Virus record (IMG/VR): IMGVR_UViG_3300042691_053605
Location: 64,001-128,000 of that record
DNA: 64,000 nucleotides
From: a virus
Direction: 5' to 3' (one strand)
Below, in pieces: positions 7,901 through 41,121 of this stretch; position 1 is the stretch's first letter; each line of letters opens with the position of its first letter. The translations under genes were made by a program, and so were the position numbers. Below the pieces are notes generated by a model that worked only from the letters and a program-made list of their open reading frames with translations, searched no databases and was not told the DNA's origin.

Positions 7901-10339
7901 AAGATTATTTAGCACCGTAACTGATGTAACGCTTCCTCCGGTAACCGCAGCAACTCTAAGTCGAATAGGATTTGAAAATACTCCACCATTTAATACGATA
8001 ATGTCATTTACCGCATAACCAGATCCTCCTACTGAATTTCCACTTAAAGTATACGTACCGGGAAACGCTGTAACGTACGCAGATCCTTGCCATATCTGTG
8101 AAGGACTTGCTGAGGTAGAAGATGAAAGTATTATGTTTGGTATACGATCAAATGCAGCGGATGAATTTATAGTAATTCCTGTGATGTTGTATGTAGAATA
8201 AAAGCTACCAATTGTGTTTTGCCCAGGAACCATTACCTTTGCTGACGCCGTAGAATCGTATTCCCGCGCATCAATAAGTTTTACTCGATCTTCATCAGCA
8301 GTAAAATCTACGTTTCGTGTAGCAATAAATTCAAAACCCTGTACTCGGTCATTCCAGGTATTAGCAGCATATCTTTCATAATATACGCCTTCTCCTACAA
8401 TATCTACAATTCTTGCGCTTAGAGGCAAAAAGTTATTTGACAAATACTGCTTAAGAGCAAAGAGCTTAATTAAAACTTCTTCATTGCTGTACTGAAACGC
8501 ATCAATTGTAAGAGGAACTCCGTTTTCATCAAGTACTCCGTTTTCTTTATTTAGATCATAAAAAAGACCAAATTTATTTGTCTTTTTGTAAACCTTGTTA
8601 GGCAGCATTCCAATACTTGAATACGGAACACCTCTTTCCTGTAGTTGAAACGGGATTTGTATCTGTTTGTATTTTCCATAGTAAACATCATCTTTGTTTA
8701 CATTTAGCCAATACTCTTTAATTCGCAAATCATAATAGCCAAACCAGTTAACAATGTTTACGATACCTTTATACGAACCCATGTAAGGCCATATTTCATC
8801 GCCTTGCAAAAGCATTTCCTTTCTCTTCTTATTCAATAAAGAATAGTCGGGAAGATCTTCATACACATTACTGTCACGCATAATTAATTCTTGCGTTTCA
8901 GTAACATCCCTTCCAAAATTTTGTAGCAGTCTTCCAAGCCTTGCGTCTTCTCCTTCTGCCTCGCCTATCATAAATACCTGTGCAAGCAAAATCGGATTGT
9001 ACGGAAAGGTTACATCCTGCAAAACAAAAAGTTTATTGTATACTCCTTCGGTTCCTGCAGAAAAACCAAAATGATATTGCATCATTTTCTCCTCCACATT
9101 CATTGCAGCAATACGATACTGCAATTCATTATCATTAACCGGAGAACCGCTTGAACCTAAAGTATAAAAATCTGCTATTTGATTGGTAAAGTTTACATCA
9201 TAATCTCCATCCACTGGTGGAATCATTAGTGATTCCGACTTTGTTATGTACGGATAATCTTCTCCATAAGTGACTGTAAAAAGAAAAATTTCAGGTTCAA
9301 CGCCAAGAACAGATCCTTTCCATTGCGGAACCGCTCTAAAATAAGTTTCCTCGGTGGCAAAAATTGTATTAGCAATAATACCAATATCAGAATTTGTTTG
9401 AAAAAATACCGATGTGTCTGACACCTGAGTTACATCAAATACGCCATTAATTGCAATAGGATTTGTGTCATTTGCAATACGTATTTTCATTCCTGCAACA
9501 AACCCGTGCTTTTTATACGCTTGAAGAGAAGCTATCGGTCCGTTTGCGGTAAATGTATGTGAAGTTCTTATTGTGGTTGAATTGATAATTTCTAAAATTG
9601 TAGTACCTGCTGGAACATTTGTTCCTTCAAGAACCATACCCACTTCTAGAGTAATTACAGGAGAAGTTACAGATACTGCATAAATTTTATCATCGCCCGC
9701 AGAGGAATTAGCAGTAAAAGAATACTTCATTACTGTAACTCTTCCTGAGTAAGAATCTGAATTGTTAGGAATTACATTGTTACGAGTACTGCTAAAAGAA
9801 CCTACCCAATTTTTTGGTCCTTCGTCTGCTCTAGGATACGAATACAGAGGAGCACCTGTGGATTCTCCTATTAGAGGAATCATTTTCTCGGTAATGAAAA
9901 TTGATTGGTTTTCGACCAATCCTGTAGATACTCTATCAAAATAAGTTTCGCCTTTCCAAGAAGTTGCAGGATATTGAAACCCGGAATTACCAGTTTTCCA
10001 ATCAGAAAACCCGGTGTAGGTTAAACCATCAAATCCGGTAATTGTACCCGTAGCCAAATCAATACTTAAATCTGCAGGATCACTATCCCATACATAACCA
10101 TTAATGTTTGTAAATCGCAAAAAGGTTTGGCCACTTGGATCATAATTAAAACCGCCGCTCTGTATTTCAAGTGCTGCAATATGGCCTTCTCTATTAGTAA
10201 AAACTTCAAAGCTTGCGCCATACCCATTTGTTGCTGCTGTTGCAGGTTCTACAACAGTAACTGTTACCGCTAAATCCGGTTGTAAATTTAGCTCGTTTCC
10301 TTTTTTGTCAAAGAAATTTAGTCTGGAAGTAAGTATCAT
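1946..10339 (-). CDS. Giant (2797 aa) baseplate/virion structural protein with PKD-like domains
   Basis: Next to baseplate wedge genes; beta-rich, repeated GxGY motifs, PKD-like segments (GFYRVELIVYD; GLYDLELSITDSNG). Confidence 0.7.
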   Translation of the reverse strand: MILTSRLNFFDKKGNELNLQPDLAVTVTVVEPATAATNGYGASFEVFTNREGHIAALEIQSGGFNYDPSGQTFLRFTNINGYVWDSDPADLSIDLATGTITGFDGLTYTGFSDWKTGNSGFQYPATSWKGETYFDRVSTGLVENQSIFITEKMIPLIGESTGAPLYSYPRADEGPKNWVGSFSSTRNNVIPNNSDSYSGRVTVMKYSFTANSSAGDDKIYAVSVTSPVITLEVGMVLEGTNVPAGTTILEIINSTTIRTSHTFTANGPIASLQAYKKHGFVAGMKIRIANDTNPIAINGVFDVTQVSDTSVFFQTNSDIGIIANTIFATEETYFRAVPQWKGSVLGVEPEIFLFTVTYGEDYPYITKSESLMIPPVDGDYDVNFTNQIADFYTLGSSGSPVNDNELQYRIAAMNVEEKMMQYHFGFSAGTEGVYNKLFVLQDVTFPYNPILLAQVFMIGEAEGEDARLGRLLQNFGRDVTETQELIMRDSNVYEDLPDYSLLNKKRKEMLLQGDEIWPYMGSYKGIVNIVNWFGYYDLRIKEYWLNVNKDDVYYGKYKQIQIPFQLQERGVPYSSIGMLPNKVYKKTNKFGLFYDLNKENGVLDENGVPLTIDAFQYSNEEVLIKLFALKQYLSNNFLPLSARIVDIVGEGVYYERYAANTWNDRVQGFEFIATRNVDFTADEDRVKLIDAREYDSTASAKVMVPGQNTIGSFYSTYNITGITINSSAAFDRIPNIILSSSTSASPSQIWQGSAYVTAFPGTYTLSGNSVGGSGYAVNDIIVLNGGVFSNPIRLRVAAVTGGSVTSVTVLNNLNQDSRYLQLPQAFSQLSSLTYTTLYGNAAYVSGSGTGFKLAYDDINYSLEGVKTTTIGKGYPVLSNYTLTAIDPVTSATPAITYDIAKTLVPGPKVGYFDGVPETGNTNESGAPVAAFVDLTALGFEVTWDEMAFSWNDLWSAEDGSLNVYIDDDPITSGAVLAVEIVSQGSGYSLTPSIEFVGGDGIGATAVTKLENGKLQIIEATATSISVLSPTTSRIFTTFNVAPQTQPYNVGSMVVGDGIPKPTVITNVDPVGAYIDVTSFTTNFSNPSPQTIYVHEGARLTAGGNGYLYSPGAKIYGGHTSVLYTWDEIGRGNFYEMEWKVDSEYGTPTFTYTSGRSSIDNHLNHRVALPYKGFYRVELIVYDTDNNWVNEIKRNYIEVYMPEAISSYATRFIGPSYKPGLPHKDGNAGSDSNILQLEQNCVDTWDEGIFMWDEFWGRWVNPIKTWTAWDDCDILWDSLYVSPLSRENNWNFPVNPLKEVYRVSAYDNKIGNVSSFNSATPSVIIALTDEQARPLPQAGEWIFFRRDGNTFQGEVVSSSITGTNITIVLDSGFTWPQNFEVSPTSWECLREIGNTVIIKDDLYTPDNGKTLTPGQYVRLQGNNDTPLNNSRTLKSQPPYKWGIPINSKIADPISGDDSGIELLNFANDSFVGREWVNGQIYKYRNLTGPNGNLLVTPWPTNSAVTTAVTLEKLESPTEFNWGNRAMFYINTSGSGTYVTTADPLTEIRPGFTEISLIVGEANEYYTELRSASLSNSTQEAKMVARDTPSNKELWVYGNGVTVDIVNTVTMTTTSFTVAGPGTIDGMVYVPGADCMYCWEFGSNRLTRINCASLAISLVVISNAQPASTGANPLMIRNVSYIGGTVNKIYVFYFDPAFTSGPGIAGLSVINPSTNLQTYERTYTGTATGPFYNATNYVNFFGTANLSASRLIIGNNVLPGYYAINLDPTTSNVSNVSSASFPLYGPGTLKDYAESTVNFWFLAANSSMQMRLSKRPNLAWSTATINTTLLNRPIPKKLAYNANTNSLYVSYENTGEIEVFPLSSTSSGQTPIAPVQYEPSTISPGMPITDLTYCGSNVYAAAVKSSTGERSVIEISNSTEFVPTSVVYEQHFRTINMYEVTSNQGHPWDIWSDSPSSVVAIEAATIDGKEMNELEGLLQDYLSNGYKTWIEYKYDVFPTRTFSSANSLSNLEITMDFNTHPIYPAFESSTQFPADTSTGEGWYYDHGISEGDFSLRVENVGQLGNTGWSILTLNDDDQELYRCDSTFEESATDFDEDYAETHLGTKTAWDEAVTLNWENSCSQTWTTLDWNYTLPASTRIAVDDDSNYAGQTIQFNEDIPYEIDLSGCPPDASVVTTYMSDLLNNNFYDPTGTIKRNENPGLSKFYYNVEERDGQHIYYGVFSWGNPANNIMFGDTSSLTGLLQGSSIQAEGIQPGWYVFNSSPTSILIGATSAAVGSRPWIPACVIHGNLESNSRVITNIVGYRDSLPLGGYIYDPNTSSVIGEFGPNIGQIVRENGFVKSITLDQVAGVTSNYMCLEVYPYRSSLVKIVRDSGLVNANYYVTVQGKTPGTDLLGYTNLGLPNIDMSFYQNYAFITQNKYSNGGNTLPLGNFFNWVKDWNSFYGGSLDSSLLQFAAPYRAPQVFLQESGQPYNPSFENYTNDEDYYGFYARNSWNSYNFETFRPKALVKVYNSAGVEVLFSPSADITITEYDDFCFITPLTTTVPAVSSGDYLKIYIADTDGDGESQSFECVLVDKTRGILGKTAVYFSADYSEDPALIYDYNKYELTNVVVQTSGGTLYEGMYLGNTSTTTFFENSRTAINSVNDNILYTNGPQIAGSGSSSTFYAYVPLSLPFKFQPTNSKIWSRTKQWQSMRLLYEDSINSAFTWEDSTIGVAEKKIPAGASVLFTSDASDIAGKTSYRWNLYHDGTKVCSVIDPSFLWTFMETGLYDLELSITDSNGNTQTKYNPNYLEVYLAN

Positions 10340-27599: not shown

Positions 27600-28427
27600 T
27601 TATAGCTTTACTTCTGGCTTAATAACCCCACTTGTATATGCGCCAATAAAAATTTCATTTTTTTGCACATTTTTAATTGCAATAATTTCGCCATCTTTAG
27701 CAGGCTGTTGGTTATTTCGTATGAATATAATCGGATGATTTTTGAAGTAGTTTTCGTATGCGACTTCTTGAAACTTTGCTTCAAGATTAGACCATCCTTG
27801 AGGATCATTTCTTTTAATAACATCAATATCGCCTTTATTAAATTCTTTGGTCTTTTTAATACCGTTTTTGTCAAGTAGATCTGCAAATTCTTGAATAATT
27901 GGCATCACCTTATCGGGAAATGTTCCGCCCATCTTAAAATTTGAAGCAACATTAGCGGAAGAAACATATACCGCTTTCAGCTCATAAGTAGTACCGCCTG
28001 ATGAAATATCAGCGCCTGCACTACTGCCACCGCCGATAACAGCATCATTAACCAAAAAGTAAATTAAAACTTCGCCAGGACCAATTCCACCAACTTTATA
28101 TTTGAAAAGATTTGTAAATCCTTGCGCGTTCTCAGATCTCAATTCCCCGATTAATTTATTTATGCCAGCCATATCTACTGATCCCAATGTTGTACTTAAA
28201 TCAAACTTTGGAAAAAAGTACTTTTTGAAAAGATACTGAATTGCTTTTTTGTAAGTAACAGTTTTGAAGTCTGCCTCTGTAAGATTAAATCCAGAAACTT
28301 TTTCTGCTCGCGCTAAAAATTTCATATCCTCTTCACCAAGTTCAAGATTTTCAAGAATACCGCGAAAGTACTCTTCACGATTTGCTTCTTCGGTAATAAT
28401 GAAATTTTTGTAATCAAGTAAGCTCAT
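27600..28427 (-). CDS. Putative PD-(D/E)xK nuclease-like protein with capsid-targeting N-terminus
   Basis: GPGE...GADI...YELK motif; MSLLDYKNFIITEE start. Confidence 0.45.
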   Translation of the reverse strand: MSLLDYKNFIITEEANREEYFRGILENLELGEEDMKFLARAEKVSGFNLTEADFKTVTYKKAIQYLFKKYFFPKFDLSTTLGSVDMAGINKLIGELRSENAQGFTNLFKYKVGGIGPGEVLIYFLVNDAVIGGGSSAGADISSGGTTYELKAVYVSSANVASNFKMGGTFPDKVMPIIQEFADLLDKNGIKKTKEFNKGDIDVIKRNDPQGWSNLEAKFQEVAYENYFKNHPIIFIRNNQQPAKDGEIIAIKNVQKNEIFIGAYTSGVIKPEVKL

Positions 28428-28490
28428 TCTGCGGTTGTCTTTTTTTCTTTTTATATTATCCTTAACACAAATAAAGAGTGATCACTACGA

Positions 28491-28709
28491 TCACTCTATA
28501 ACTATCTCGGGTCCACCGATGTACTCTACAATACCGCTTTTTGAAACGGATCTAATTTCATAATCAAAGGTGGTTCCTCTAAATTTTTCTCGTACTTTTG
28601 CCTGAGACTCTTCAATTGTCTCTGCATTTACAAGATAAGTTTCTGTAATGGTACGAACTTTACCATCATCATCGTAACTTGTTTTTACTCTTACTGTCCA
28701 GTGAGCCAT
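28491..28709 (-). CDS. DUF4494-like protein
   Basis: W.V.VK...DGKV...TETYLVNA...E..A pattern resembling the Bacteroidota DUF4494 family. Confidence 0.55.
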   Translation of the reverse strand: MAHWTVRVKTSYDDDGKVRTITETYLVNAETIEESQAKVREKFRGTTFDYEIRSVSKSGIVEYIGGPEIVIE

Positions 28710-28736
28710 ATTATTGTGTTTTAAGGGTTGTCTGTT

Positions 28737-28744
28737 TATTTATC
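28737..28744 (-). promoter_or_regulatory. Late-type promoter GATAAATA
   Basis: Upstream of 28709 start, but overlaps the PAP2 stop codon. Confidence 0.35.
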
Positions 28745-29609
28745 CTTGCAAGAGATTGTTTTCAAAAATGATATTGCAAATTTCTCGTGATATCTGTGTA
28801 TCGGAAGGATAATGAATTCCGGTAACTTCTCGGCTGCGTGCTACTCTTTCTCCCAAATCTTTTAATTCCTTTTTAATCTTGGGATATTTTCTTGAGTAAT
28901 ACTCACTCATTACAAATCCGGTTAGCGCATGACCGCTGGGATACGCCGCAGTCATTGCATCTGTTCTGATTAGCGGATAAAGAGGATAGTTGCAACATTT
29001 TGCTAATTGATAAGGCCTTGGGCGATTGATTATGTCTTTTAGAAAATAGAGAATTCCATCTGGCTGAGAGTCAATTCGGAAATACCCACCCATATCTTCC
29101 TCATAGCCGTTTTCTTTTAAGAGATCAATAAAAGACTGCGCTAAATTACTCACATCATCTACATATCTTGCAAAAGTTATCTCCTCAGCGGTGGCTTCTG
29201 CTGTAAGTTTAACCAGGGTTTCTAAATCCTTTTTTGTGGTTTCACTATCATTGGCAGGAGCGGTTGCACGCATTCTTTCGCAAATACCTTTTTCAATAAA
29301 CCAGTTCTTAATCGGATCGTCAGCCTTTTGTGAAATTTCAAAAAGTTCCATTGGAGGATTTCCGTATTGCACAGAATTAACATCGATACCCTCATCAGTA
29401 ACTCCCATTTGAGCCTCATAGAGATCGGTTTTCTTCTTCTTGCCTTTATCCGGCCCACCCTCATGCGGAATCATACCTTGTGCAATTAGAGAAGTTCTAA
29501 CGCCAAACGGTATTTCCTTTCCGTCCTCGTATTCTTTTTTGTACTTTTGTAAAGTTTCATCTGAATACGGAGATTCTTTCTCTGTTATGAATTCTTTGTA
29601 GTTTTTCAT
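28740..29609 (-). CDS. PAP2-superfamily phosphatase with capsid-targeting N-terminus
   Basis: KDIINRPRP, YPSGH, SREVTGIHYPSD; starts MKNYKEFITE. Confidence 0.85.
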   Translation of the reverse strand: MKNYKEFITEKESPYSDETLQKYKKEYEDGKEIPFGVRTSLIAQGMIPHEGGPDKGKKKKTDLYEAQMGVTDEGIDVNSVQYGNPPMELFEISQKADDPIKNWFIEKGICERMRATAPANDSETTKKDLETLVKLTAEATAEEITFARYVDDVSNLAQSFIDLLKENGYEEDMGGYFRIDSQPDGILYFLKDIINRPRPYQLAKCCNYPLYPLIRTDAMTAAYPSGHALTGFVMSEYYSRKYPKIKKELKDLGERVARSREVTGIHYPSDTQISREICNIIFENNLLQG

Positions 29610-29902
29610 TTATCAAGTAGGTCTTCTCTACCAAGTTGTTTGTAAACCTCTTGGCGGGTTTTTTCCATTTTTTCTGCGTACTCGGGATCGGATTTGCGGT
29701 TAAACACAATTTGTTGTGTAAGACTTCCGCTAATCTTTTTTAAGTCTTTTTTGCGTGTTTTAATCAGCCAGGCTGCAAGATCTTTAATACTTAAATCACG
29801 AAAACGGCCTTCTGCATCCGGAGCATCACTGTCTTTCCAATCTGGAGCGTTAGCAGGTTTTTTCTCTGCTAACCAACTTTCATATAGTTTTACGTACATC
29901 AT
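29606..29902 (-). CDS. Putative internal head protein
   Basis: MYVKLYESWLAE N-terminus. Confidence 0.55.
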   Translation of the reverse strand: MMYVKLYESWLAEKKPANAPDWKDSDAPDAEGRFRDLSIKDLAAWLIKTRKKDLKKISGSLTQQIVFNRKSDPEYAEKMEKTRQEVYKQLGREDLLDK

Positions 29903-30444
29903 TTAGGTATTCCGATAAGAACTTTTGTTTTCATTGGACCGCCGGTGAGTTTTCTGTCGTAACTGCCATCAGGATTCATTTTGATATCCTTGTTTAGCAC
30001 TTTACGAATTTCTTTCTCATCTTTGATATGGGTCAACCCAAATTTTTGTGCAAGATCTGGATCAACCTCGGCGTAAAAGCCTCTGGTTTTCATCAGTTCA
30101 ATCATTTTTAGTACTGCATCCTTCTTTGCCTGTGTACCACCGTCCTGACCCATTACAGTCATTTTTACTCCATGCGGTGTTGGTTTACCACCAAGTACTA
30201 CATCCGCGTCAGGATCGGTATCAACATCTTTTGCAATCCAATAAGTAACATCAGAACCTTTAAGATCTGAACCTTTTTTGAATTCCACGTTTCCGCCTTT
30301 ACCTGCATACGCCTTATTAATAAGATCCACAATTTCATCAGCGTAATCCAGCAGCTCTGATTGCGGTATATCCACAAATATTTGTTTAGGATGTGCATCC
30401 GCAAAACTTTCAGCTAGCCAAGAGGCATAATTTAGAATTTTCAT
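29899..30444 (-). CDS. Putative internal head protein (possibly GNAT-like fold)
   Basis: MKILNYASWLAE N-terminus; DLINKAY.GKGG motif. Confidence 0.5.
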   Translation of the reverse strand: MKILNYASWLAESFADAHPKQIFVDIPQSELLDYADEIVDLINKAYAGKGGNVEFKKGSDLKGSDVTYWIAKDVDTDPDADVVLGGKPTPHGVKMTVMGQDGGTQAKKDAVLKMIELMKTRGFYAEVDPDLAQKFGLTHIKDEKEIRKVLNKDIKMNPDGSYDRKLTGGPMKTKVLIGIPK

Positions 30445-30451
30445 ACCTTAT

Positions 30452-31060
30452 TTATCTTGGAGTAGTAATGTCCTTAGACTCTAGCAGAGTATATGTAAAT
30501 GAGTTGCCCCACAGATTTTTTGCGGATCTGCAAATTTCCATAAAGGTGTAAAAGTCTTTTTTCCTCTTAAACACTTGGCAGCCTTCTGACCAGTTTTCTA
30601 CATAGGTTGAATCTTCACCAGCATGATGGATATTAATTCCAAACCCGGTTCCTTCGTCATATAAAGTGCCATCAAATACCATATCGCGGTCAGAATCCCG
30701 GTAAACTTTAAGAAGACCTTTTTGACGCAGGGCTTCATAGTTTTTATGTGGACCTATCATATGAGAGCCAGGGTACTGACCCGGAATTAACCGGGCCACA
30801 CCTTGACGATTTCCATATTCCATGACACCTTTTTTCCCAGGATCTGTGGTAATAATCCACTCATGGTATTTCCACACTTCATTAATTTTGTACACAAGAC
30901 ACATTCTGTCGTCAAACAAATTCGTTACCGCATTTCCTACATCACTATTCCGAACTCCTACTATATTAAGATTGTAATTTCCTTCGTCAAACCAACGGTA
31001 GCCTTTTGACTTTACCGTGGCCTCAATTTGCCCGTGTGTCCAATTCATTGAAGTTTCCAT
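30452..31060 (-). CDS. YkuD / L,D-transpeptidase-like peptidoglycan enzyme
   Basis: GINIHHAG...WSEGCQV (H...SxGC) motif; coupled to endolysin. Confidence 0.6.
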   Translation of the reverse strand: METSMNWTHGQIEATVKSKGYRWFDEGNYNLNIVGVRNSDVGNAVTNLFDDRMCLVYKINEVWKYHEWIITTDPGKKGVMEYGNRQGVARLIPGQYPGSHMIGPHKNYEALRQKGLLKVYRDSDRDMVFDGTLYDEGTGFGINIHHAGEDSTYVENWSEGCQVFKRKKDFYTFMEICRSAKNLWGNSFTYTLLESKDITTPR

Positions 31061-31896
31061 TATTTTAGAAGCGCGTAATACTCTTTGAAATGCTTAATGC
31101 GGTCAGCCAATCCAATGGTTCCACCGTTAACTCTTTTAGTTACCGCTGTTACTGTTGCGTCATCCGCGCCTTTATCACAAATACTCCACAATTTGTTGGA
31201 ATCAAAGAAAAAAGCAGCAGAAGCCAGCGCATATTTAGAAGCAACTAAATCAGGAGCGGCTACGCAGTCTTCTCCAATAAACTTAGTAAAGGCAGTATAG
31301 TTACTTTTACCAGTCAATTGGATATATCCACGACCGCGGTAGTTCCAACCATCTTTGGAAGCCTCGTCTCCGTTACCCATACGGCTTGCGTATACTCGAG
31401 CGGCAATTTTTTCCGGTTGACGAGCATAAGAGGCGGAAAGATCTCCAGGAAAGTATTTTCCAAAAATCTTCTTTAGCCCATCTGCACTGTAATTAAGATT
31501 TTCAGCAACCGCCTTAAATCCTCCACTTTCATGTCCACACTGGGCTAAGAAATGTGCAAGTCTAAGACTGTTAGTGATATTAAATTTTGCAGCAGTGTCA
31601 GGAATTTGAGCAAGTACAGCGTCAGGAATATGTCCTTTTAATTTGTCTAACTTAAATCCGGAAGCTGATGGAGCAGCCGCAACTGGAGCCGCTGTTTCAG
31701 CAACATGAACTGCGCCAAGACCCATACGTTCCCATGTGGCGTTACCAACAATACCGTCAGCAGACAATCCGTGTTTTTCTTGCCATATCTTTACAGCAGC
31801 CTCGGTGCCAGGACCGAAAGCTCCATCATCAGCAAGTCCTAAAAATCTTTGAAGAGACTTTACCTCTTCGCCAGATGATCCTTTTTTCAATAACAT
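31060..31896 (-). CDS. Endolysin: PG-binding domain + glycoside hydrolase family 19
   Basis: DGAFGPGTEAAV...DGIVG; AHFLAQCGHESGG, ENLNYS, YRGRGYIQLTGK, VTKRVNGG. Confidence 0.92.
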   Translation of the reverse strand: MLLKKGSSGEEVKSLQRFLGLADDGAFGPGTEAAVKIWQEKHGLSADGIVGNATWERMGLGAVHVAETAAPVAAAPSASGFKLDKLKGHIPDAVLAQIPDTAAKFNITNSLRLAHFLAQCGHESGGFKAVAENLNYSADGLKKIFGKYFPGDLSASYARQPEKIAARVYASRMGNGDEASKDGWNYRGRGYIQLTGKSNYTAFTKFIGEDCVAAPDLVASKYALASAAFFFDSNKLWSICDKGADDATVTAVTKRVNGGTIGLADRIKHFKEYYALLK

Positions 31897-31911
31897 ATTT
31901 GATTGTTTATT

Positions 31912-32280
31912 TTAGCATTCACAAGGTTCTTGACCACAATTAGGGCAAGTAGAATCAACAGAAACCACTTCAGCAGCCTCCTCCTTTTTTACCGGTGTGG
32001 TGGCCTGATTAATATCCTTTTTTGCAGCAGTAAACTTATCAACAGATGACAATCCAAGAGTTGCAAATGCCAATAGAGCAACTGCATCTACAAGGTATTG
32101 CGCAGGAGCAATATCTACAGTTGAAAAACTGTTGTGATACATGGTAACGCAAAGTGTAGCAGCACACATAACGCCAACTAGTCTTTTTGATGATGGTACT
32201 CCTTTTTCATCTTTGAAAAGTCCGCCTGACCATTTTTTCAAGTCTTCAAACCATTTTTTGATGTTTTCAAATAGTTTCAT
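31912..32280 (-). CDS. Holin-like membrane protein
   Basis: SSKR motif followed by two hydrophobic segments, directly upstream of endolysin. Confidence 0.6.
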   Translation of the reverse strand: MKLFENIKKWFEDLKKWSGGLFKDEKGVPSSKRLVGVMCAATLCVTMYHNSFSTVDIAPAQYLVDAVALLAFATLGLSSVDKFTAAKKDINQATTPVKKEEAAEVVSVDSTCPNCGQEPCEC

Positions 32281-32297
32281 TGTTTTGTTTTGTTATT

Positions 32298-32870
32298 TTA
32301 TTCCTTCGTCTCACTGGCGTATTTAACACCCATTATCGTTCCCACTATTGAAAAAGCATTTGTAAGAAGTATTCCAAACATATTGCTCCAGGTACTTCCT
32401 ATAATTTGTGTATCTTTATCTGTAATCATAGCAACCGCGTACATTCCTGTGGTAATTACTCCCACGCTTCCAATTACAATCAGTGCAACTTTTACAATTA
32501 AACCCATAAGCTCAAATTGCGATTTTTTCTGTGCAACTTCTAAATCATTTAAAGCTGCATCTTTTGCAGCTTCTGCTTTTTTCTTTGCATCTTCCGCATC
32601 TGATAACGCACTTTTGAGTTCTTCATTTATTCTAACAATCTCTTCTTCGGTTTCCTGTAGCTCACGATTTCTCTCTTGTACCTGTTTAGTAATTTCAAGT
32701 CTTCGTTTGCGTGTTTCCTTATCTTTATCTGTAGATTCTTTTATGTAGGTTGCAAATTCAGTATCGCCAGCATCCGCTTCCAACAACTTAAGAATATTGC
32801 CTTCCAGCGTTATTCTTTTTGTACGTTGTACCTCTAATAGCCAATCTCTTACTGTTTTATCAACTTTCAT
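32298..32870 (-). CDS. Coiled-coil membrane protein (two C-terminal TM segments)
   Basis: Long heptad helix (ELKSALSDAEDAKKKAEAAK) then two hydrophobic segments; coupled to the receiver gene. Confidence 0.65.
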   Translation of the reverse strand: MKVDKTVRDWLLEVQRTKRITLEGNILKLLEADAGDTEFATYIKESTDKDKETRKRRLEITKQVQERNRELQETEEEIVRINEELKSALSDAEDAKKKAEAAKDAALNDLEVAQKKSQFELMGLIVKVALIVIGSVGVITTGMYAVAMITDKDTQIIGSTWSNMFGILLTNAFSIVGTIMGVKYASETKE

Positions 32871-33301
32871 TATTTGTATATCTTAAAGGGAGCAGACTTA
32901 CTTTTGTAACTGTCAAAATCTTTTTTGAAATCTTCTAAACGAGGCTCAATATCATCACTCTTAATAATCCAGAACTGTGCACCGGCTTTTTGCGCCTTTG
33001 TTTGCTCCTCGGGTTCATTAGAAGAGGAAATAATGCCAATTACCACGCCATCTCCGTATTCAAAATTTATTTTACGGATAAGTTCAATGCCATCATAAGA
33101 AGATCCAATAATGTTTAGATCTACAAATACGCATTCGGGTTTTCCCGCAGAGTCTTGCTGCCATGCAGCAAATAAACGCGCTGCTTGATCCGCGCTATCA
33201 ATACATTCCAACGTTAGAGAGATATCTAACAAACTGCATGCATCTTCAAAAACAAGATGGAAGAGGCTTTCATCGTCAACCAACAAGATTGATTCAATCA
33301 T
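32870..33301 (-). CDS. Single-domain response regulator (receiver only)
   Basis: ILLVDD, VFVDLN (phospho-Asp), DGIEL, ISSS, IIK; no output domain. Confidence 0.9.
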   Translation of the reverse strand: MIESILLVDDESLFHLVFEDACSLLDISLTLECIDSADQAARLFAAWQQDSAGKPECVFVDLNIIGSSYDGIELIRKINFEYGDGVVIGIISSSNEPEEQTKAQKAGAQFWIIKSDDIEPRLEDFKKDFDSYKSKSAPFKIYK

Positions 33302-34631
33302 TTTGTATGCTTATTTTCATTTTAGTGCCTTTTGGCAATTTTTCACAATCCAAGCGATAACCGTGTTCCACAAAAATTGCGTTTGTGATGTTAAGACCCA
33401 AACCTTCTCCGCCATCTACCGCATTTTGAGTATCAATTTTATGCTCCAAAACTTTTTGAAACTCCTTTGGTGATAAGCCTCGTCCGTTATCCTCTACACA
33501 TATAATGTTATCAGTTCTATATATCTTTACAGCCTTTTCTGCGCTGTCATTGTACTTTAATCCGTTACGTACTAAATTATCAATACCACTGCAAAAAAGT
33601 ATCGGATTAACGTTTTCAGTGCCAAGATCTTCCACTGTTACCTGGGATCCATAAGATGTATTTGAAAAGTATTTCAGCAGTTCATCTTTTAGGTTTACTT
33701 CTTTTTTCTCAAGAACTACATTTTCTTTTACCAGATTTGTAAATTCGTACACATTTTTATACACCTTTTGTGTATGCGCAAGCCCTTCTTTAATCATTTT
33801 TATTGCACCGTCAATCTTAAGCTCTTTCATTTTTTCTTCATCTACGCGCCTTTCCAGCGATGTTATTCCACGGGGCATATAGGTATTAATACCGCTGTGC
33901 ATATCGTGACGTATTAAACGCGCGGCATGGTCAAGATATGTGTTTTTCTTATTAATGTCTCTTATTTGTTCCTCGATCTCAACATCCTGTACCTGTATTT
34001 TTTTCCTTTGTAAAACCACTGCGGTAACCAGACCAAGGGCAGTAATTATACCAAAAGCAATATAGAGATATCTCTTTAACTTATTTTGTTCTACCTTTAG
34101 TTCATCATTTTGGCCTACCAGATTTCCGTTTTCATCTTTTAATTCACCTTCGGTTAACGTTAAATTAATGATGCTCTTTTCTTTTTCCAACACAGTCAAA
34201 GTTCCTTGTTTTGACTTAATAAGTTCCTGTTTTGCTCTCTCTTTAATTAACTTATCAATTTCCTGTTTTAATTGTGCAATCTTATTGTCAATTTGTATTA
34301 AGACAGTTTTCAAATTTTCTTTAGGCAGTTCCTCATAAGAAGGCGGAAGATCTGCCATAAATTTAACGTCCTCCTCTAAAAGTTTAACGTCCTCTTGCGT
34401 TAGTTCCTCTTTTGGCTCCTCAAAGATTTTTTCTGGCTTAACCCAGTTTGGGACAATTTTGTCAATCATATCCGTAATAATGTTTGACTCTAAAACGGTG
34501 TCCTTTTTTAACACATCAAGTTTCTTTTCCGGGTTTACCCAACTTGGATTAATTCTTACGTCATCCAGCGTATCTTGCGAAAACGCACCAATTGAAATGA
34601 CAAATAATGGTATCAATAATAATGTTTTCAT
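33294..34631 (-). CDS. Membrane sensor histidine kinase (signal peptide, extracytoplasmic coiled coil, one TM)
   Basis: H-box RHDMHSGIN, N-box NLVRNGLKY, EDNGRG, GEGLGL. Confidence 0.9.
   Translation of the reverse strand: MKTLLLIPLFVISIGAFSQDTLDDVRINPSWVNPEKKLDVLKKDTVLESNIITDMIDKIVPNWVKPEKIFEEPKEELTQEDVKLLEEDVKFMADLPPSYEELPKENLKTVLIQIDNKIAQLKQEIDKLIKERAKQELIKSKQGTLTVLEKEKSIINLTLTEGELKDENGNLVGQNDELKVEQNKLKRYLYIAFGIITALGLVTAVVLQRKKIQVQDVEIEEQIRDINKKNTYLDHAARLIRHDMHSGINTYMPRGITSLERRVDEEKMKELKIDGAIKMIKEGLAHTQKVYKNVYEFTNLVKENVVLEKKEVNLKDELLKYFSNTSYGSQVTVEDLGTENVNPILFCSGIDNLVRNGLKYNDSAEKAVKIYRTDNIICVEDNGRGLSPKEFQKVLEHKIDTQNAVDGGEGLGLNITNAIFVEHGYRLDCEKLPKGTKMKISIQND
33874..33911. repeat. 38-bp exact repeat, copy 1 (H-box of kinase 1)
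   Basis: ggcatataggtattaataccgctgtgcatatcgtgacg, identical to 35872-35909. Confidence 0.9.
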
Positions 34632-35293
34632 TGTTTTGCCTCCTTATCAAGACGGTTCCATTTAGTACGGTATTTCCAAACTTTTCTTTTTGTGGATTCT
34701 TCGCTACCTAAACGTTGGATTTTTATTTTGCTTCTGAATTCAAACCAGGCGGCCTGATTGACGCCATAAGTTTCTACAAATTTCTTATATTTTTTATACT
34801 CTTTCTTTGACATTTTTTGAAGGGAATACCCAAAGTCATAATTTATTAAGTAGTACTCCGATAAATCCATTATGTATATAGTAGTGTCGTCGGGATACTG
34901 GGTATACACTAGTGAAGGGCCAAGCGCCCAGCTCCATAGGCTGTCCAGGACATACTGGTTTTTTGTTTCTCCGCTGCCATTTATTTTAGCTATTGAGTCT
35001 ATTATGTTTTTTTGTATTCCATTTAGCTGTTTTAGCACTCGGTTTTCTTCTAACAAAATTTGATTAATTTGACTTAGGCTATCAATAAAAAGTTTGTTTT
35101 TAGAATCTTTTTTCCGGTATTCCTTAGTCTCCGCAACTTTTTTATCAATCATTTGATTAATTTTTTCAGATTGCTCAATGGTTAATATGATAACCGAATC
35201 GCCTTTGAAGATTGTTTTGATAGGGTACTGGTTTTGTGATAAACCAACTACCACTGAAAAAAAGATTGCAGTGGTAAGCAGAAAATTTTTCAT
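34628..35293 (-). CDS. Secreted/periplasmic coiled-coil protein between the two kinases
   Basis: N-terminal signal peptide MKNFLLTTAIFFSVVVGLSQ. Confidence 0.65.
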   Translation of the reverse strand: MKNFLLTTAIFFSVVVGLSQNQYPIKTIFKGDSVIILTIEQSEKINQMIDKKVAETKEYRKKDSKNKLFIDSLSQINQILLEENRVLKQLNGIQKNIIDSIAKINGSGETKNQYVLDSLWSWALGPSLVYTQYPDDTTIYIMDLSEYYLINYDFGYSLQKMSKKEYKKYKKFVETYGVNQAAWFEFRSKIKIQRLGSEESTKRKVWKYRTKWNRLDKEAKQ

Positions 35294-35294
35294 C

Positions 35295-36557
35295 TTAATG
35301 TAGACTTATTTTCATTTGTGTGCCACCTTGCGGCAGCTTATTGCAATCTACCGAAAAATTGTGTTCTTCTAAAATTGCAATACAGATGTTTAGGCCTAAA
35401 CCGGTACCGGTTTCTTTTTGGCCTTCCTTTCGAGTATACGGCTGTGACAAGTGCTTAAAGTCTTCTTGACTCATTCCACGTCCATTATCTTCTATAAAAA
35501 TATCATTGTCAATACGATAAATCTTTACCTTTTTGCAATCGCTATCATTATACTTTAGTCCGTTTCTTATTAGGTTATCAACCGCGGTACAAAAAAGAGC
35601 TTCATTAACTTCGGAGGTTCCCAGATCTTCAATTTCAACTTGTGGACGATACGCGGTAGCAGAGAGATAGTCCTCTAAAATTTCTTTAAGATTGCAACTT
35701 TCTGTATTTAGCACCGCATCTTTTTTGACAAGATTTGTAAATTCGTAAACGCCTTTGTAAACTTTTTGAGTATGACGAAGACCTTCTTTAATCATTTTTA
35801 GCGGAGCATCAATCTTTAATTCCTTTTGTTTATCTTCAGGCATTCTTCGCTCAAATGAGGAAAGGCCACGCGGCATATAGGTATTAATACCGCTGTGCAT
35901 ATCGTGACGAATAATTTTTGCGGCATGTTCTAAATAAGTGTTTTTCTTTTCAAGCTCCTTTGAAGATTTTACAATATCTGTAATGTCTTGCCGAATAGAG
36001 GAAAAGCCTTCAAGCTCTCCATTTCGATCAAATCGGGCACGAATGTAGGTATCTACATAATAAAGTTCTCCACTTTTTGTTCGGTTGGTTACTACGTCGT
36101 TCCAAATGCCACCAGCTAGTACAGTTTTATACATTTCTCCCCAATATCCATCTGGTTGAACTCCGGAATTTACGATACTGTGATCCTTTCCAATTACTTC
36201 TTCTAGTTTCCAACCTGACACCTCTTCAAATTTCTTATTTACATAAGTAATTTTGCCGTATCGATCTGCAAGCGAAATAATTGAAGACGCATCAATAAAG
36301 CCGTCGGTGCCAGCAATTCGCCTTTGCATATCATCAATATGTTCTTTTTGAATTTTCTTAATAGCGCCAATTGTACTTCTAACCAAATAGGTAAACAGCG
36401 GAATAAATGAAAGAAAGCAAATGTATTCAATACTTCGCGTAAGACTGGTTGATTCGCAAACCTCAATAAATACTAAGGTTTTTACTATTGAAAAGATTAC
36501 GATATCTACACAAGTTAGTGCAAATATAGCTTTTGTTAAGAAGGAATAGATTTTCAC
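35295..36557 (-). CDS. PAS-domain sensor histidine kinase (two N-terminal TMs)
   Basis: PAS/PAC (DRYGKITYVN...NRTKSGELYYV), H-box RHDMHSGIN, NLIRNGLKY, EDNGRG, GTGLGL. Confidence 0.92.
   Translation of the reverse strand: MKIYSFLTKAIFALTCVDIVIFSIVKTLVFIEVCESTSLTRSIEYICFLSFIPLFTYLVRSTIGAIKKIQKEHIDDMQRRIAGTDGFIDASSIISLADRYGKITYVNKKFEEVSGWKLEEVIGKDHSIVNSGVQPDGYWGEMYKTVLAGGIWNDVVTNRTKSGELYYVDTYIRARFDRNGELEGFSSIRQDITDIVKSSKELEKKNTYLEHAAKIIRHDMHSGINTYMPRGLSSFERRMPEDKQKELKIDAPLKMIKEGLRHTQKVYKGVYEFTNLVKKDAVLNTESCNLKEILEDYLSATAYRPQVEIEDLGTSEVNEALFCTAVDNLIRNGLKYNDSDCKKVKIYRIDNDIFIEDNGRGMSQEDFKHLSQPYTRKEGQKETGTGLGLNICIAILEEHNFSVDCNKLPQGGTQMKISLH
35872..35909. repeat. 38-bp exact repeat, copy 2 (H-box of kinase 2)
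   Basis: Identical to 33874-33911. Confidence 0.9.
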
Positions 36558-37621
36558 AGCATGGATTTGACTTTTTGAACGTACTCGTCCACAAAAGCCC
36601 GGAGTTTATCCGCTGCGGCCTGGGCGGCTGGAGTCGTTATTTTATCCAATTTAGATGAGTTTGCAGCGGTATACATTTTATCAATATACCGGTTTCTAAC
36701 CGCATCTAAAAGTTCCGCTCCTGATTTGTACTTAATGACCGTACCGAATTCACCTAATTGCTCAAGTGTATCTGCAACTGCGCGGATTCCATCGCATAAG
36801 TCTTCAAATCTTGGATTGGACGGATCAATACCTTTCCAGCTTTTTAATGACTGGGAAGGGTTAAACTCTTTTTCCGTACCCGACTCTTGCCAAAAGAACT
36901 TGGCAATATCCACCATAAATGTATTAATGTCTTTTGTTATTAACCGGTCTTCAACACCGGCTCTTTTACTGTATGAAACCATTTGAGTGCCCCCAAATTT
37001 AGCACGGATTCCGCGAGGCTGTATACTTATTTCCAGAACCTCTCCAAAAGACGAATAGAGGTTTCCAAGTACAAATCCTTTTACATTTCTGATTGGCGTC
37101 ATTCTAAAAATTGCCCAGTCTTTATACCCAGTATGAGTAACCACCATGTCCACCTGAATCCAGCCATCGCCTTCTGGAGTGGCCACCTTCATAATCAGTT
37201 TTACCGATGACGGATCTGAAATTTTCCGTGATTCCTCAATGTCAATAAATGAATATGACTTCTTGGAAAGGAAGTCAAGTAACTCATTATTGTAAAGTTT
37301 TACTGTAGCAATTTCGTTGGATCTTTCATCCTTGCCAGTTAAATCAAGCGTAGGATAAGCAACCATAAAGTCTATGTCGCCATAGACTTTATCAGGCTGC
37401 GAAATAATATCGTCTTCATACCAGGTTCCGCTTCCAATAGGTTTGGAAAAATCAAGTGGAGGCAGCTCAATGGTTTTACAGTGAGCTGCAAATTCGGAAC
37501 CAATGATCTGAAGTTTTTTAACGCCGTCTGCTATAATTTTTGGCTTAATGAGAGTGGACTGGGTCTTTACAGATGCCCAGCCGCCCTCGGCTAACCAGTT
37601 TTCATACAGACGTACATACAT
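36554..37621 (-). CDS. Pol-beta-superfamily nucleotidyltransferase-like protein with capsid-targeting N-terminus
   Basis: IGSG...YGDIDFMV and IQVDMV catalytic Asp pattern; MYVRLYENWLAE start. Confidence 0.6.
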   Translation of the reverse strand: MYVRLYENWLAEGGWASVKTQSTLIKPKIIADGVKKLQIIGSEFAAHCKTIELPPLDFSKPIGSGTWYEDDIISQPDKVYGDIDFMVAYPTLDLTGKDERSNEIATVKLYNNELLDFLSKKSYSFIDIEESRKISDPSSVKLIMKVATPEGDGWIQVDMVVTHTGYKDWAIFRMTPIRNVKGFVLGNLYSSFGEVLEISIQPRGIRAKFGGTQMVSYSKRAGVEDRLITKDINTFMVDIAKFFWQESGTEKEFNPSQSLKSWKGIDPSNPRFEDLCDGIRAVADTLEQLGEFGTVIKYKSGAELLDAVRNRYIDKMYTAANSSKLDKITTPAAQAAADKLRAFVDEYVQKVKSML

Positions 37622-38211
37622 TATTGTTCGGTTGTTTCGTTACCAGGAAGAACTTGATCAACTACGTTTTCCTTTCCATAAACTGCCAAGTTAACTTGGT
37701 GAGTAATTGGAACATTACGTAAAACTTCTGAACCAATCATATTGTTATAGCTAGGATAGGTTTGGAAATTTTCAGCAAGAAAACTTTCAAAATCTGCTAC
37801 CGCATTGGCAGAAACACCTTCTTTAATTTTGTAAGTTTTACCTTCAAATTCAAATTCAGTCTTTCCTTCCTCTTTTGCTTTTGCAACGGCACCAGAAAAT
37901 TTGTTTCCTTCATCAACCTCAGTGTCGTCTTCTACTTCAGCATTTACATCATCGGCGGCGTCAGAAGCAGGAGTTTCGGTATCATCACCTTTTGGATCTT
38001 CAGCAGGCTCTTCGTCAGGACGCTCTGTATTAGAAGGTTCTGTGCCTTTTGCATCCGGAGTTTCTTCAGGCTTTTCTGCTGTTGGAACTTCATCTTTTGG
38101 AGCTTCGGCATTGGCGGTAGTTTCCGCATCGCCTGTTTCAGGCTTTTTCTTAGGATCCGTATTAGGATTTTCATCCTGCAGGAACTCGTCAAATTTCTTT
38201 ACGTGTTTCAT
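37621..38211 (-). CDS. Acidic low-complexity putative internal head protein
   Basis: MKHVKKFDEFLQDE start, internal DFESFLAE, KTEFEFEGKTY motif. Confidence 0.6.
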   Translation of the reverse strand: MKHVKKFDEFLQDENPNTDPKKKPETGDAETTANAEAPKDEVPTAEKPEETPDAKGTEPSNTERPDEEPAEDPKGDDTETPASDAADDVNAEVEDDTEVDEGNKFSGAVAKAKEEGKTEFEFEGKTYKIKEGVSANAVADFESFLAENFQTYPSYNNMIGSEVLRNVPITHQVNLAVYGKENVVDQVLPGNETTEQ

Positions 38212-38231: not shown

Positions 38232-38240
38232 CTATATATC
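38232..38240 (-). promoter_or_regulatory. Late-type promoter GATATATAG
   Basis: Heads the 38211-to-30452 run containing the two-component and lysis genes. Confidence 0.6.
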
Positions 38241-38967: not shown

Positions 38968-38995
38968 AAAAAAAGCCAGACCGTAGTCTGGCTTT
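38968..38995 (-). terminator. Intrinsic terminator with C(UACG)G tetraloop
   Basis: GCCAGAC-TACG-GTCTGGC-T7 on minus strand. Confidence 0.85.
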
Positions 38996-40596: not shown

Positions 40597-41121
40597 TTAA
40601 GGTTTTAATTGATATGAATGTACTCTTTCAGCGTATTCATTTACGCAAGGTCTTCCAGTATTGTAACAGCCAAAAACAGTTTTCCAGTCACCGTAACGAT
40701 CATATAGGTATCGTAAAAGTTTCATGCTTGTCTTTGCATTGAATTCAATATTCGTTCGAAGTTCCTCTTTATCTATTTCCCATTTTGGCCACATCATTTT
40801 TGCCGTGGTAGGCATAATTTGCATAGGACCAACTGCACCAACTGATGAGGTTTGAGCAGGATTGTAACTCCAGTGAAACGGGCCGCGATAACCGGTTTCA
40901 ACGTGTGCAACTCCGTACGCGTATGCTTTAGGAATGTTATATTCTTCTGCATATTTGTCAATGTAATAGTACAACTGAATACACGGAGGAGTGTTTTCAT
41001 TAACAGGGACAGCCCCCAAGTCAATCAGATTGATTGACTTGGAAATAGGACTGCTGTAGGCAGCATACGCCAAAACAAATAGAACGGCTGCCAAAACGAT
41101 AAAAATTTCCAGCCTTTTCAT
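40597..41121 (-). CDS. Lytic transglycosylase (SLT) with N-terminal signal/anchor
   Basis: AHVETGY catalytic Glu, GAVGPMQIMPTTA, YNTG. Confidence 0.85.
   Translation of the reverse strand: MKRLEIFIVLAAVLFVLAYAAYSSPISKSINLIDLGAVPVNENTPPCIQLYYYIDKYAEEYNIPKAYAYGVAHVETGYRGPFHWSYNPAQTSSVGAVGPMQIMPTTAKMMWPKWEIDKEELRTNIEFNAKTSMKLLRYLYDRYGDWKTVFGCYNTGRPCVNEYAERVHSYQLKP

Follow-up and report, generated by a model that had tools for sequence, protein, structure and literature searches.

The timing of lysis sets the burst size and the fitness of a bacteriophage and, to our knowledge, the signal-dependent lysis controls known so far, such as lysis inhibition in T4, act by direct binding of an antiholin to a holin. 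Lysis inhibition in T4 involves the holin T together with the antiholin RI (and RIII), through direct protein binding in the periplasm (PMC11413866). Here we describe a different arrangement in the contig of an uncultured large phage, the IMG/VR virus record IMGVR_UViG_3300042691_053605. A stretch of 64,000 nucleotides of this record (positions 64,001 to 128,000, hereafter the window) encodes, next to lysis genes, two histidine kinases (HK1 and HK2), a receiver-only response regulator (RR) and a membrane protein with a putative coiled coil and two transmembrane segments (TMs), which we call the hairpin protein. On balance, we think it probable that these proteins form a phage-encoded phosphorelay with a membrane-protein output that acts in host lysis. 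As in T4, the phage would delay or set lysis on a sensed cue, and the system would include a part in the periplasm as well as a membrane protein that belongs to the lysis pathway. However, the T4 system has no kinases, receiver or phosphorylation, whereas in the module described here the signal would run from the cytoplasm to the membrane via a coiled coil. None of the eight proteins of the module matched the RI, RIII or T families in Pfam or PHROG.

In Staphylococcus and its relatives, LytSR is associated with the LrgAB/CidAB holin- and antiholin-like proteins (PMC6993578, PMC5717393). There, too, two-component signalling is coupled to murein hydrolase activity and to holin-like membrane proteins, and the energy state of the cell is a candidate for the input. 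LytSR, however, is bacterial and transcriptional, LytR having a LytTR DNA-binding domain, whereas the module is phage-encoded and the partner of its receiver is a membrane protein. Moreover, the kinases of the module are of PAS and periplasmic-domain types and not of the LytS type, and the module falls outside the LytSR type of system. Single-domain regulators are also known to act by protein contact, as CheY does with FliM, and DivK with DivJ, PleC and DivL, where it controls kinases. Together with flavin PAS sensors such as Aer, these regulators come nearest as models of the single steps of the module. RR resembles these regulators in being a receiver-only protein with a putative protein target, and in bacterial-looking relatives the domain in question heads a second histidine kinase. 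It differs from them in that the target domain of the phage is fused to a membrane hairpin and to no enzymatic domain, and this N-terminal domain (N-domain) belongs to no described family.

Phages with pieces of bacterial signalling have been described before. The Clostridium difficile phage phiCDHM1 carries agr genes, including the one for the AgrC kinase (PMC4124054). It is similar to the present phage in having a histidine kinase taken from bacterial signalling, whereas the module holds a complete kinase, receiver and output set and lies beside lysis genes. phiCDHM1 reportedly carries no regulator to go with the kinase and has been proposed to influence quorum sensing in its host. A comparative review of jumbo phages mentions only a different receiver variant, which is not linked to a kinase (PMC7824862). 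Full-text literature searches returned no description of a phage kinase-receiver-membrane-output set beside lysis genes, and the statement in the initial annotation of this DNA that no example was described holds for the literature searched. What appears to be new here is two-component signalling with a new output and in a new setting, while its reading as a lysis timer is put forward as a proposal.

The record is a single linear contig of 142,917 bp, with an estimated completeness of about 50% (CheckV), and the window is its second half. Nearly all of its genes are on the minus strand, and phage baseplate and endolysin genes are among them. The eight genes of the module were all located on the minus strand, in the positions and with the tight gaps first annotated. 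They encode, from 5' to 3', HK1 (35295..36557), a secreted protein (34628..35293), HK2 (33294..34631), RR (32870..33301), the hairpin protein (32298..32870), a holin-like protein (31912..32280), an endolysin (31060..31896) and a YkuD-fold enzyme (30452..31060). The intergenic spacing ranges from -8 to +17 nt, with +1 nt between HK1 and the secreted protein, -4 between the latter and HK2, -8 between HK2 and RR, -1 between RR and the hairpin protein, +17 between the hairpin and holin-like proteins, +15 between the holin-like protein and the endolysin, and -1 between the endolysin and the YkuD-fold enzyme.

Comparison with related loci indicates that the core of this run is a trio formed by a kinase, the receiver and the hairpin protein. 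The three genes follow one another in this order in nearly all of the about 90 related viral loci that were fetched. Of 41 non-redundant loci, 20 have at least 5 kb on both flanks (hereafter full-flank loci). RR, with 143 residues, matches Response_reg (PF00072) in Pfam with 34.6 bits against a cut-off of 30.2, and the receiver profile matches, among natural proteins of the PDB, response regulators only. It has no output domain, in agreement with its first description as a receiver-only regulator, and its residues D9, D10, D61, S92 and K114 do not vary among the 45 receivers compared. RR is also the most conserved member of the trio. Its gene and that of the hairpin protein are -3 to +6 nt apart in 41/41 non-redundant pairs, and these data support the hairpin protein as the fixed, translationally coupled partner of RR.

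This coupling bears on a reading in which the chief role of the phage kinases is to hijack the signalling of the host, adding phosphate to host regulators or removing it, with RR as a phosphate sink or as a relay to host proteins. It is general knowledge that single-domain receivers of the Spo0F and CheY types can serve as sinks or relays, and homologous kinase-receiver pairs are found, rarely, in Bacteroidota-binned contigs. Against this, the receiver gene is coupled to the hairpin gene in every one of the pairs, the N-domain follows the same receiver regardless of the output that it carries, and a search at E <= 1e-20 did not find the receiver in 400 other sampled Bacteroidota genomes. We consider a hijack of this kind very improbable, and the observations on the hairpin protein below are discussed in terms of a relay with a phage-encoded output.

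The hairpin protein has 190 residues. In the alignment it shows a conserved N-domain from residue 1 to about residue 70, a putative coiled coil of variable length, a first transmembrane segment (TM1), a short loop and a near-invariant second segment (TM2). The two TMs are C-terminal and both ends of the protein are predicted to be cytoplasmic. The AlphaFold 2 (AF2) model (pLDDT 84.7) predicts a single helix from residue 37 to residue 150, in which the coiled coil continues into TM1. TM2 and the loop are near-invariant between phages that otherwise share 30-50% identity in their proteins. The protein has no Pfam family, and a PDB fold search gave no significant match, the best rows (E > 3) being generic helical hairpins such as the c subunits of ATP synthase. 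Its relatives comprise 7084 metagenomic proteins, none of them with a Pfam family, and the Atlas clusters are 100% viral.

The N-domain is also found at the head of kinases. A kinase with HisKA and HATPase_c domains, from a Bacteroidota contig with type-IX-secretion neighbours, has an N-terminus with 33% identity to it (E 6e-14), and the gene for this kinase is preceded by those for a PAS kinase and the same 143-residue receiver. In an all-library profile search, the domain begins in the first few residues of nearly all listed matches, and 5/6 N-domain proteins of about 320-350 residues have a kinase core. In two further contexts, the gene for a 143-residue receiver-only protein abuts the gene for an N-domain kinase with zero intergenic gap, and in one of them (L111) a kinase gene also lies 5' of the receiver gene. 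Given that the N-domain accompanies RR whatever lies behind it, it behaves as expected of a receiver-docking input domain. The gene sets of two bacterial-looking contigs (L096:8041-9090 and L111:1567-2523), with a kinase, then a 143-residue receiver and then a cytoplasmic HisKA and HATPase_c kinase headed by the N-domain, look like an undescribed receiver-controlled kinase cascade.

The hairpin, in turn, forms the C-terminus of 806 longer metagenomic proteins (70-78% identity), in which it directly follows PAS-PAS or GAF sensors. Two phage contigs of about 163 kb hold such one-component proteins, a PAS-PAS-hairpin protein of about 370 residues (L104:6001-7116, P0286) and a GAF-hairpin protein of about 345 residues (L106:6001-7044, P0245). 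Since the hairpin lies behind the sensors in these fusions, it appears to be a reusable effector of sensory input, acting directly or via a phosphorelay. These comparisons define two undescribed modules: a receiver-associated N-domain and a conserved membrane hairpin, which recurs with PAS, GAF or receiver inputs. Domain fusions and gene coupling both point to the hairpin protein as the output of the relay.

The two kinases that would feed this output are encoded 5' of RR. HK1, of 420 residues and with a GTG start, has a PAS domain (E 2e-7) and a HATPase_c domain (E 6e-15) in Pfam. Hydrophobic stretches near residues 3-35 and 46-60 predict two N-terminal segments and a membrane anchor. The best PDB matches of its PAS domain are MmoS (3ewk, E 3e-24), Aer (8dik, 2e-14) and NifL (2gj3, 1e-8), in line with the likeness to redox sensors of the Aer/NifL type that was noticed at first, and sequence comparison places the domain with the FAD-binding PAS group of these three proteins. 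As in Aer, a cytoplasmic PAS domain is combined with a membrane anchor. The output of HK1 is a histidine kinase core, and neither a chemoreceptor nor a NifA-binding module.

HK2 (HATPase_c, E 1.5e-12) has a signal-like N-terminus, an extracytoplasmic region of about 165 residues, a TM at residues 187-209 and then the kinase core. This core is paralogous to that of HK1; it is 55-58% identical to related HK1-type cores and its H-box is the same. Among 90 unique kinase cores of relatives, conservation is 95% or higher for the H-box RHDMHSGINTY.PRG and for the N, G1 and G2 boxes (N.I.NGL.YN, DNG.G and GLGL), and together with the invariant residues of RR this agrees with the initial annotation, in which the catalytic His, ATP-box and Asp residues looked intact. 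An H-box region common to both kinases fits a single shared receiver. The HisKA model of Pfam matched neither HK1 nor HK2, so the DHp region of both is a divergent subtype.

The secreted protein encoded between the two kinases (221 residues, with a signal-like N-terminus) belongs to no family. It has no significant match in Pfam or PHROG, a weak match to Abi_alpha being under the cut-off, and it has no significant similarity either to the periplasmic domain of HK2 or to the protein with a signal peptide and a C-terminal TM that is found in related lysis cassettes. Matches occur in 27 related loci and, where present in the listed loci, the gene is directly 5' of an HK2-type kinase gene. Orthologues of HK1 were found in 87 related loci and those of HK2 in 39. 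The set of two kinases and one receiver is real and intact, but HK2 and the secreted protein form an accessory insert, present in roughly a third of the related loci.

Several lines of evidence link the trio with lysis. A wall hydrolase is encoded within 100 bp of the module in 8/20 full-flank loci, within 2 kb in 12/20 and within 5 kb in 14/20. Nine or more arrangements of hydrolase and trio occur among the related loci, the endolysin gene being placed upstream in the same orientation, upstream and divergent, directly downstream, or downstream past one, three or four genes for small membrane proteins. Three unrelated hydrolase families stand beside the trio, namely GH19 in most loci, GH24 and M15, and YkuD-fold partners are found too. 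In L083, the gene directly 3' of that of the hairpin protein encodes a GH24 Phage_lysozyme (Pfam E 6e-43). BLAST searches with this enzyme identified GH24 at the same place in L086 and, with one more gene in between, in L014; Peptidase_M15_3 occurs in L064, L024 and L016. The holins near the trio vary as well, with Phage_holin_10 (E 2e-19, L024) or at least three other, unassigned types of small 2-TM protein. One GAF-hairpin gene is followed by two small open reading frames (ORFs) and then by a GH19 gene.

The other flanks of the window served as a control. Of its ten neighbours without a role in lysis, seven lack any homologue in related loci and the remaining ones were found in 3-5 loci, whereas the lysis genes of the window recur in 50 (endolysin), 15 (holin-like protein) and 12 (YkuD-fold enzyme) of them. 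Lysis genes alone travel with the trio, which is good neighbourhood evidence for a shared function. The initial annotation had named a module unlinked to lysis genes in relatives as the outcome to look for, and by and large the linkage withstood this survey: unrelated lysis families stay beside the trio, with about 30% of the full-flank loci having no lysis gene within 5 kb.

Some of our observations weigh against the proposal of a phosphorelay acting in lysis. The loci just mentioned (6/20; L001, L036, L076, L079, L087 and L095) have no recognisable lysis gene within 5 kb, one PAS-hairpin locus has just a holin-family gene, 3 kb off, and bacterial-looking relatives of the kinase-receiver pair are in non-lysis contexts (L096, L097 and L111). 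The related loci are phylogenetically non-independent, and the counts given for them overstate their independence. As for the components, a six-frame family search of the record missed RR at E <= 0.01, and the Pfam match of RR is modest. In the PAS domain of HK1, a Tyr aligns with the Trp of the 'DMW' motif of Aer and MmoS. This Trp has a role in flavin binding, and flavin binding by HK1 is uncertain because of the replacement.

Full-flank loci with no lysis gene nearby would also fit a relay that drives a membrane effector for a role other than lysis, such as superinfection exclusion, the adjustment of host ions or energy, or envelope remodelling. The adjacency to lysis genes would then come from the clustering of envelope-acting late genes in a variable region. 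Both the occurrence of the kinase-receiver pair and the N-domain in bacterial-looking contigs with no lysis genes and the finding of a PAS-hairpin gene among nucleotide-metabolism genes are in favour of such a role. However, the genes that recur next to the trio, variously oriented, are those of three unrelated families of hydrolase and of several types of holin, while the remaining flanks show no conservation, and in many loci the hairpin gene or the trio directly adjoins or overlaps the endolysin gene. For these reasons, we regard a non-lysis effector as unlikely.

The same adjacency is compatible with another explanation, in which the hairpin protein is itself the holin or a pore-forming trigger, its large cytoplasmic N-domain being gated by phosphorylated RR, and the nearby small 2-TM proteins are antiholins or accessory lysis factors. 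In seven loci (L053, L070, L083, L085, L086, L088 and L091) the hairpin gene is directly upstream of the endolysin gene, the place that a holin gene classically takes. Where the gap was measured it amounts to 11-24 nt, except in L083, where the two genes overlap by 4 nt. The two TMs, with both ends predicted in the cytoplasm, point in the same direction. But TM2 and the loop are near-invariant, unlike in holins, and L085, L088 and L091 also carry a homologue of Phage_holin_10 past the endolysin gene (by BLAST to the L024 holin). Furthermore, the window has a holin-like gene of its own, and the hairpin protein matched no holin family. The hairpin protein as the pore former is thus quite improbable in our opinion, and we favour its role as the output of the phosphorelay on the timing of lysis.

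The lysis genes of the window follow that of the hairpin protein. The holin-like protein has 122 residues, two hydrophobic segments and a charged C-terminal region, which together with its position fit a candidate holin; it matched no Pfam or PHROG family, holin families included, and one of its homologues is encoded directly beside a Peptidase_M15_3 endolysin (L064). The endolysin has PG_binding_1 (4.5e-13) and Glyco_hydro_19 (5e-9) domains in Pfam and matches phrog_181 (6e-71), and its relatives carry an endolysin or chitinase annotation in isolated phages. With a catalytic and a wall-binding domain, and by its place in a lysis cassette, it is consistent with a GH19 phage endolysin.

The last protein of the run, of 202 residues, was first annotated as a YkuD-like enzyme, and both its fold and its catalytic motif bear this out. 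It matches phrog_3000 as well as the C-terminal part of the endolysin family phrog_33083. Its AF2 model (pLDDT 82.7) is most similar, in VIA-align comparisons, to Pgp2 (Z 9.0), Bd1075 (8.6) and Csd6 (8.3). The top 40 structural matches all have the YkuD fold (Z 9.0-5.5), and the next ones fall to Z 2.4. The catalytic motif, H145 and S158-x-G160-C161, shows no variation. Since the YkuD model of Pfam gave no match, this L,D-transpeptidase/carboxypeptidase-like protein is a distant member of the family.

Two other proteins may be mentioned in connection with the cell envelope. About 4 kb upstream of the module, positions 40597-41121 of the window (minus strand) encode a protein of 174 residues with an N-terminal signal-anchor and a lytic transglycosylase domain of the SLT type (phrog_669/13449). 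It has a homologue about 4.5 kb from the module in L013, and it could be a second, membrane-tethered wall-degrading enzyme. In related phages, lysis cassettes end with a protein of 146 residues (L002:8614-9054, with homologues in L001 and L039) that has a signal-like N-terminus, a coiled coil and a C-terminal TM, a layout that resembles a unimolecular spanin but has no lipobox.

In the mechanism that we propose, HK1, anchored in the membrane with its FAD-type PAS domain in the cytoplasm, would probably respond to the infected cell's redox or energy state, and HK2, probably aided by the secreted protein, would read an envelope or periplasmic cue. Superinfection, the example of such a cue given in the initial annotation, is a speculative candidate. 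Both kinases would phosphorylate Asp61 of the single receiver, which in its phosphorylated form would bind the small N-domain of the hairpin protein. The continuous helix of coiled coil and TM1 would then relay the change to the near-invariant membrane hairpin, and this would shift the timing of the membrane breach, so that the GH19 endolysin and the YkuD-fold enzyme reach the wall. The hairpin may trigger or delay hole formation, or it may act on membrane energisation; changes in membrane energisation fire holins generally. We infer the phosphotransfer, the binding of RR to the N-domain, the sensed signals and the effect on lysis timing from sequence comparisons.

With regard to the final step, the initial annotation suggested an output to the holin via the 2-TM protein. 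The 2-TM protein is indeed the fixed partner of the receiver, but the variation of the holin families next to a near-invariant TM2 speaks against a specific contact with the holin. For this reason, we favour the membrane itself, or a host component that is conserved, as the target of the hairpin.

At least 474 IMG/VR contigs, from 5 to 430 kb in length, encode a relative of the receiver, the best 80 being 75-88% identical, and the top 120 metagenomic matches of the kinase all exceed 600 bits. A search of the GenBank phage collection gave no DNA match to the module and no homologue of the receiver, and for the kinase its matches were limited to unspecific PAS or ATPase stretches in enteric phages. 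This collection therefore offers no cultured relative of the module. Among GTDB species genomes, only two clearly bacterial contexts of the relay were found. A host origin of the relay, from Bacteroidota, was considered and is not established, with these two contexts and 0/400 in the other sampled genomes of the phylum.

The complete trio also occurs in a high-GC contig of a Gemmatimonadota-binned metagenome-assembled genome (L095), among many proteins with an N-terminal MTPTHLTLAAVAALAAAG... leader. This contig is probably a phage of a high-GC host that was binned with the genome, and it shows the trio to cross host groups. A wider reading can be put forward, in which a widespread clade of uncultured large phages times lysis by its own phosphorelay. 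FAD-PAS and envelope kinases would act through the receiver and the portable, receiver-docking N-domain on the hairpin, which would trigger or block the breach of the membrane, whichever holin and endolysin are carried, and the one-component fusions of the hairpin with PAS or GAF would be a shortened version of this system. We hold this generalisation tentatively, as possible but somewhat doubtful.

The tight co-oriented run is longer than the eight genes of the module and is extended on both sides, from 38211 to about 28491. Terminator-like hairpins on the minus strand are found 5' of the unit (38972..38995, a 10-bp stem followed by a T run) and at the end that closes it (28475..28497, a 10-bp stem followed by a T-rich tail). 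A late-type promoter had been annotated at 38232, where the motif GATATATAG (38232..38240, minus strand) is 20 nt 5' of the first gene of the run (ORF 37621-38211). The motif has 6 exact matches in the window against 0.47 expected (about 13-fold), and 0/100 shuffles reach 6. Its sites include 16526, 24588, 24624 (plus strand), 38232 and 38957 of the window, with others in the record, where minus-strand start codons are among those it precedes, usually about 20-25 nt before start codons and often in the form tGATATATAGcttagaaa. Its enrichment and position make it a plausible candidate for a phage-specific promoter, with a putative 'late' timing. The copy at 33517 lies within HK2, where it spells out the conserved KIYR, and is probably a chance product of the coding sequence. 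GATAAATAA, which was tried as another candidate late motif, has 4 matches against 1.9 expected, which is not significant, and a scan for promoters of the sigma-70 type gave matches that were rarer than in shuffles and hence uninformative.

Most of the genes that flank the module (36554-38211 and 27600-30444, minus strand) begin with similar short N-terminal leaders, e.g. M.(Y/H)VK..(E/D).(W/F)L(A/Q/N)E, and these leader-bearing genes are not kept beside the module in relatives. Outside the window, a third HATPase_c match of the record (G000 8204-8512) falls in an ORF of 604 residues, which is probably a topoisomerase or GHKL ATPase and not a kinase.

If the proposal is true, a phage-encoded control of lysis that is based on phosphorylation and driven by sensors would be a new regulatory layer, and the burst would be tied to the redox or energy state and to the envelope state of the infected cell. 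Given that at least 474 contigs carry the receiver and that the hairpin family has about 7,000 proteins, the mechanism would apply to a large group of uncultured environmental phages.

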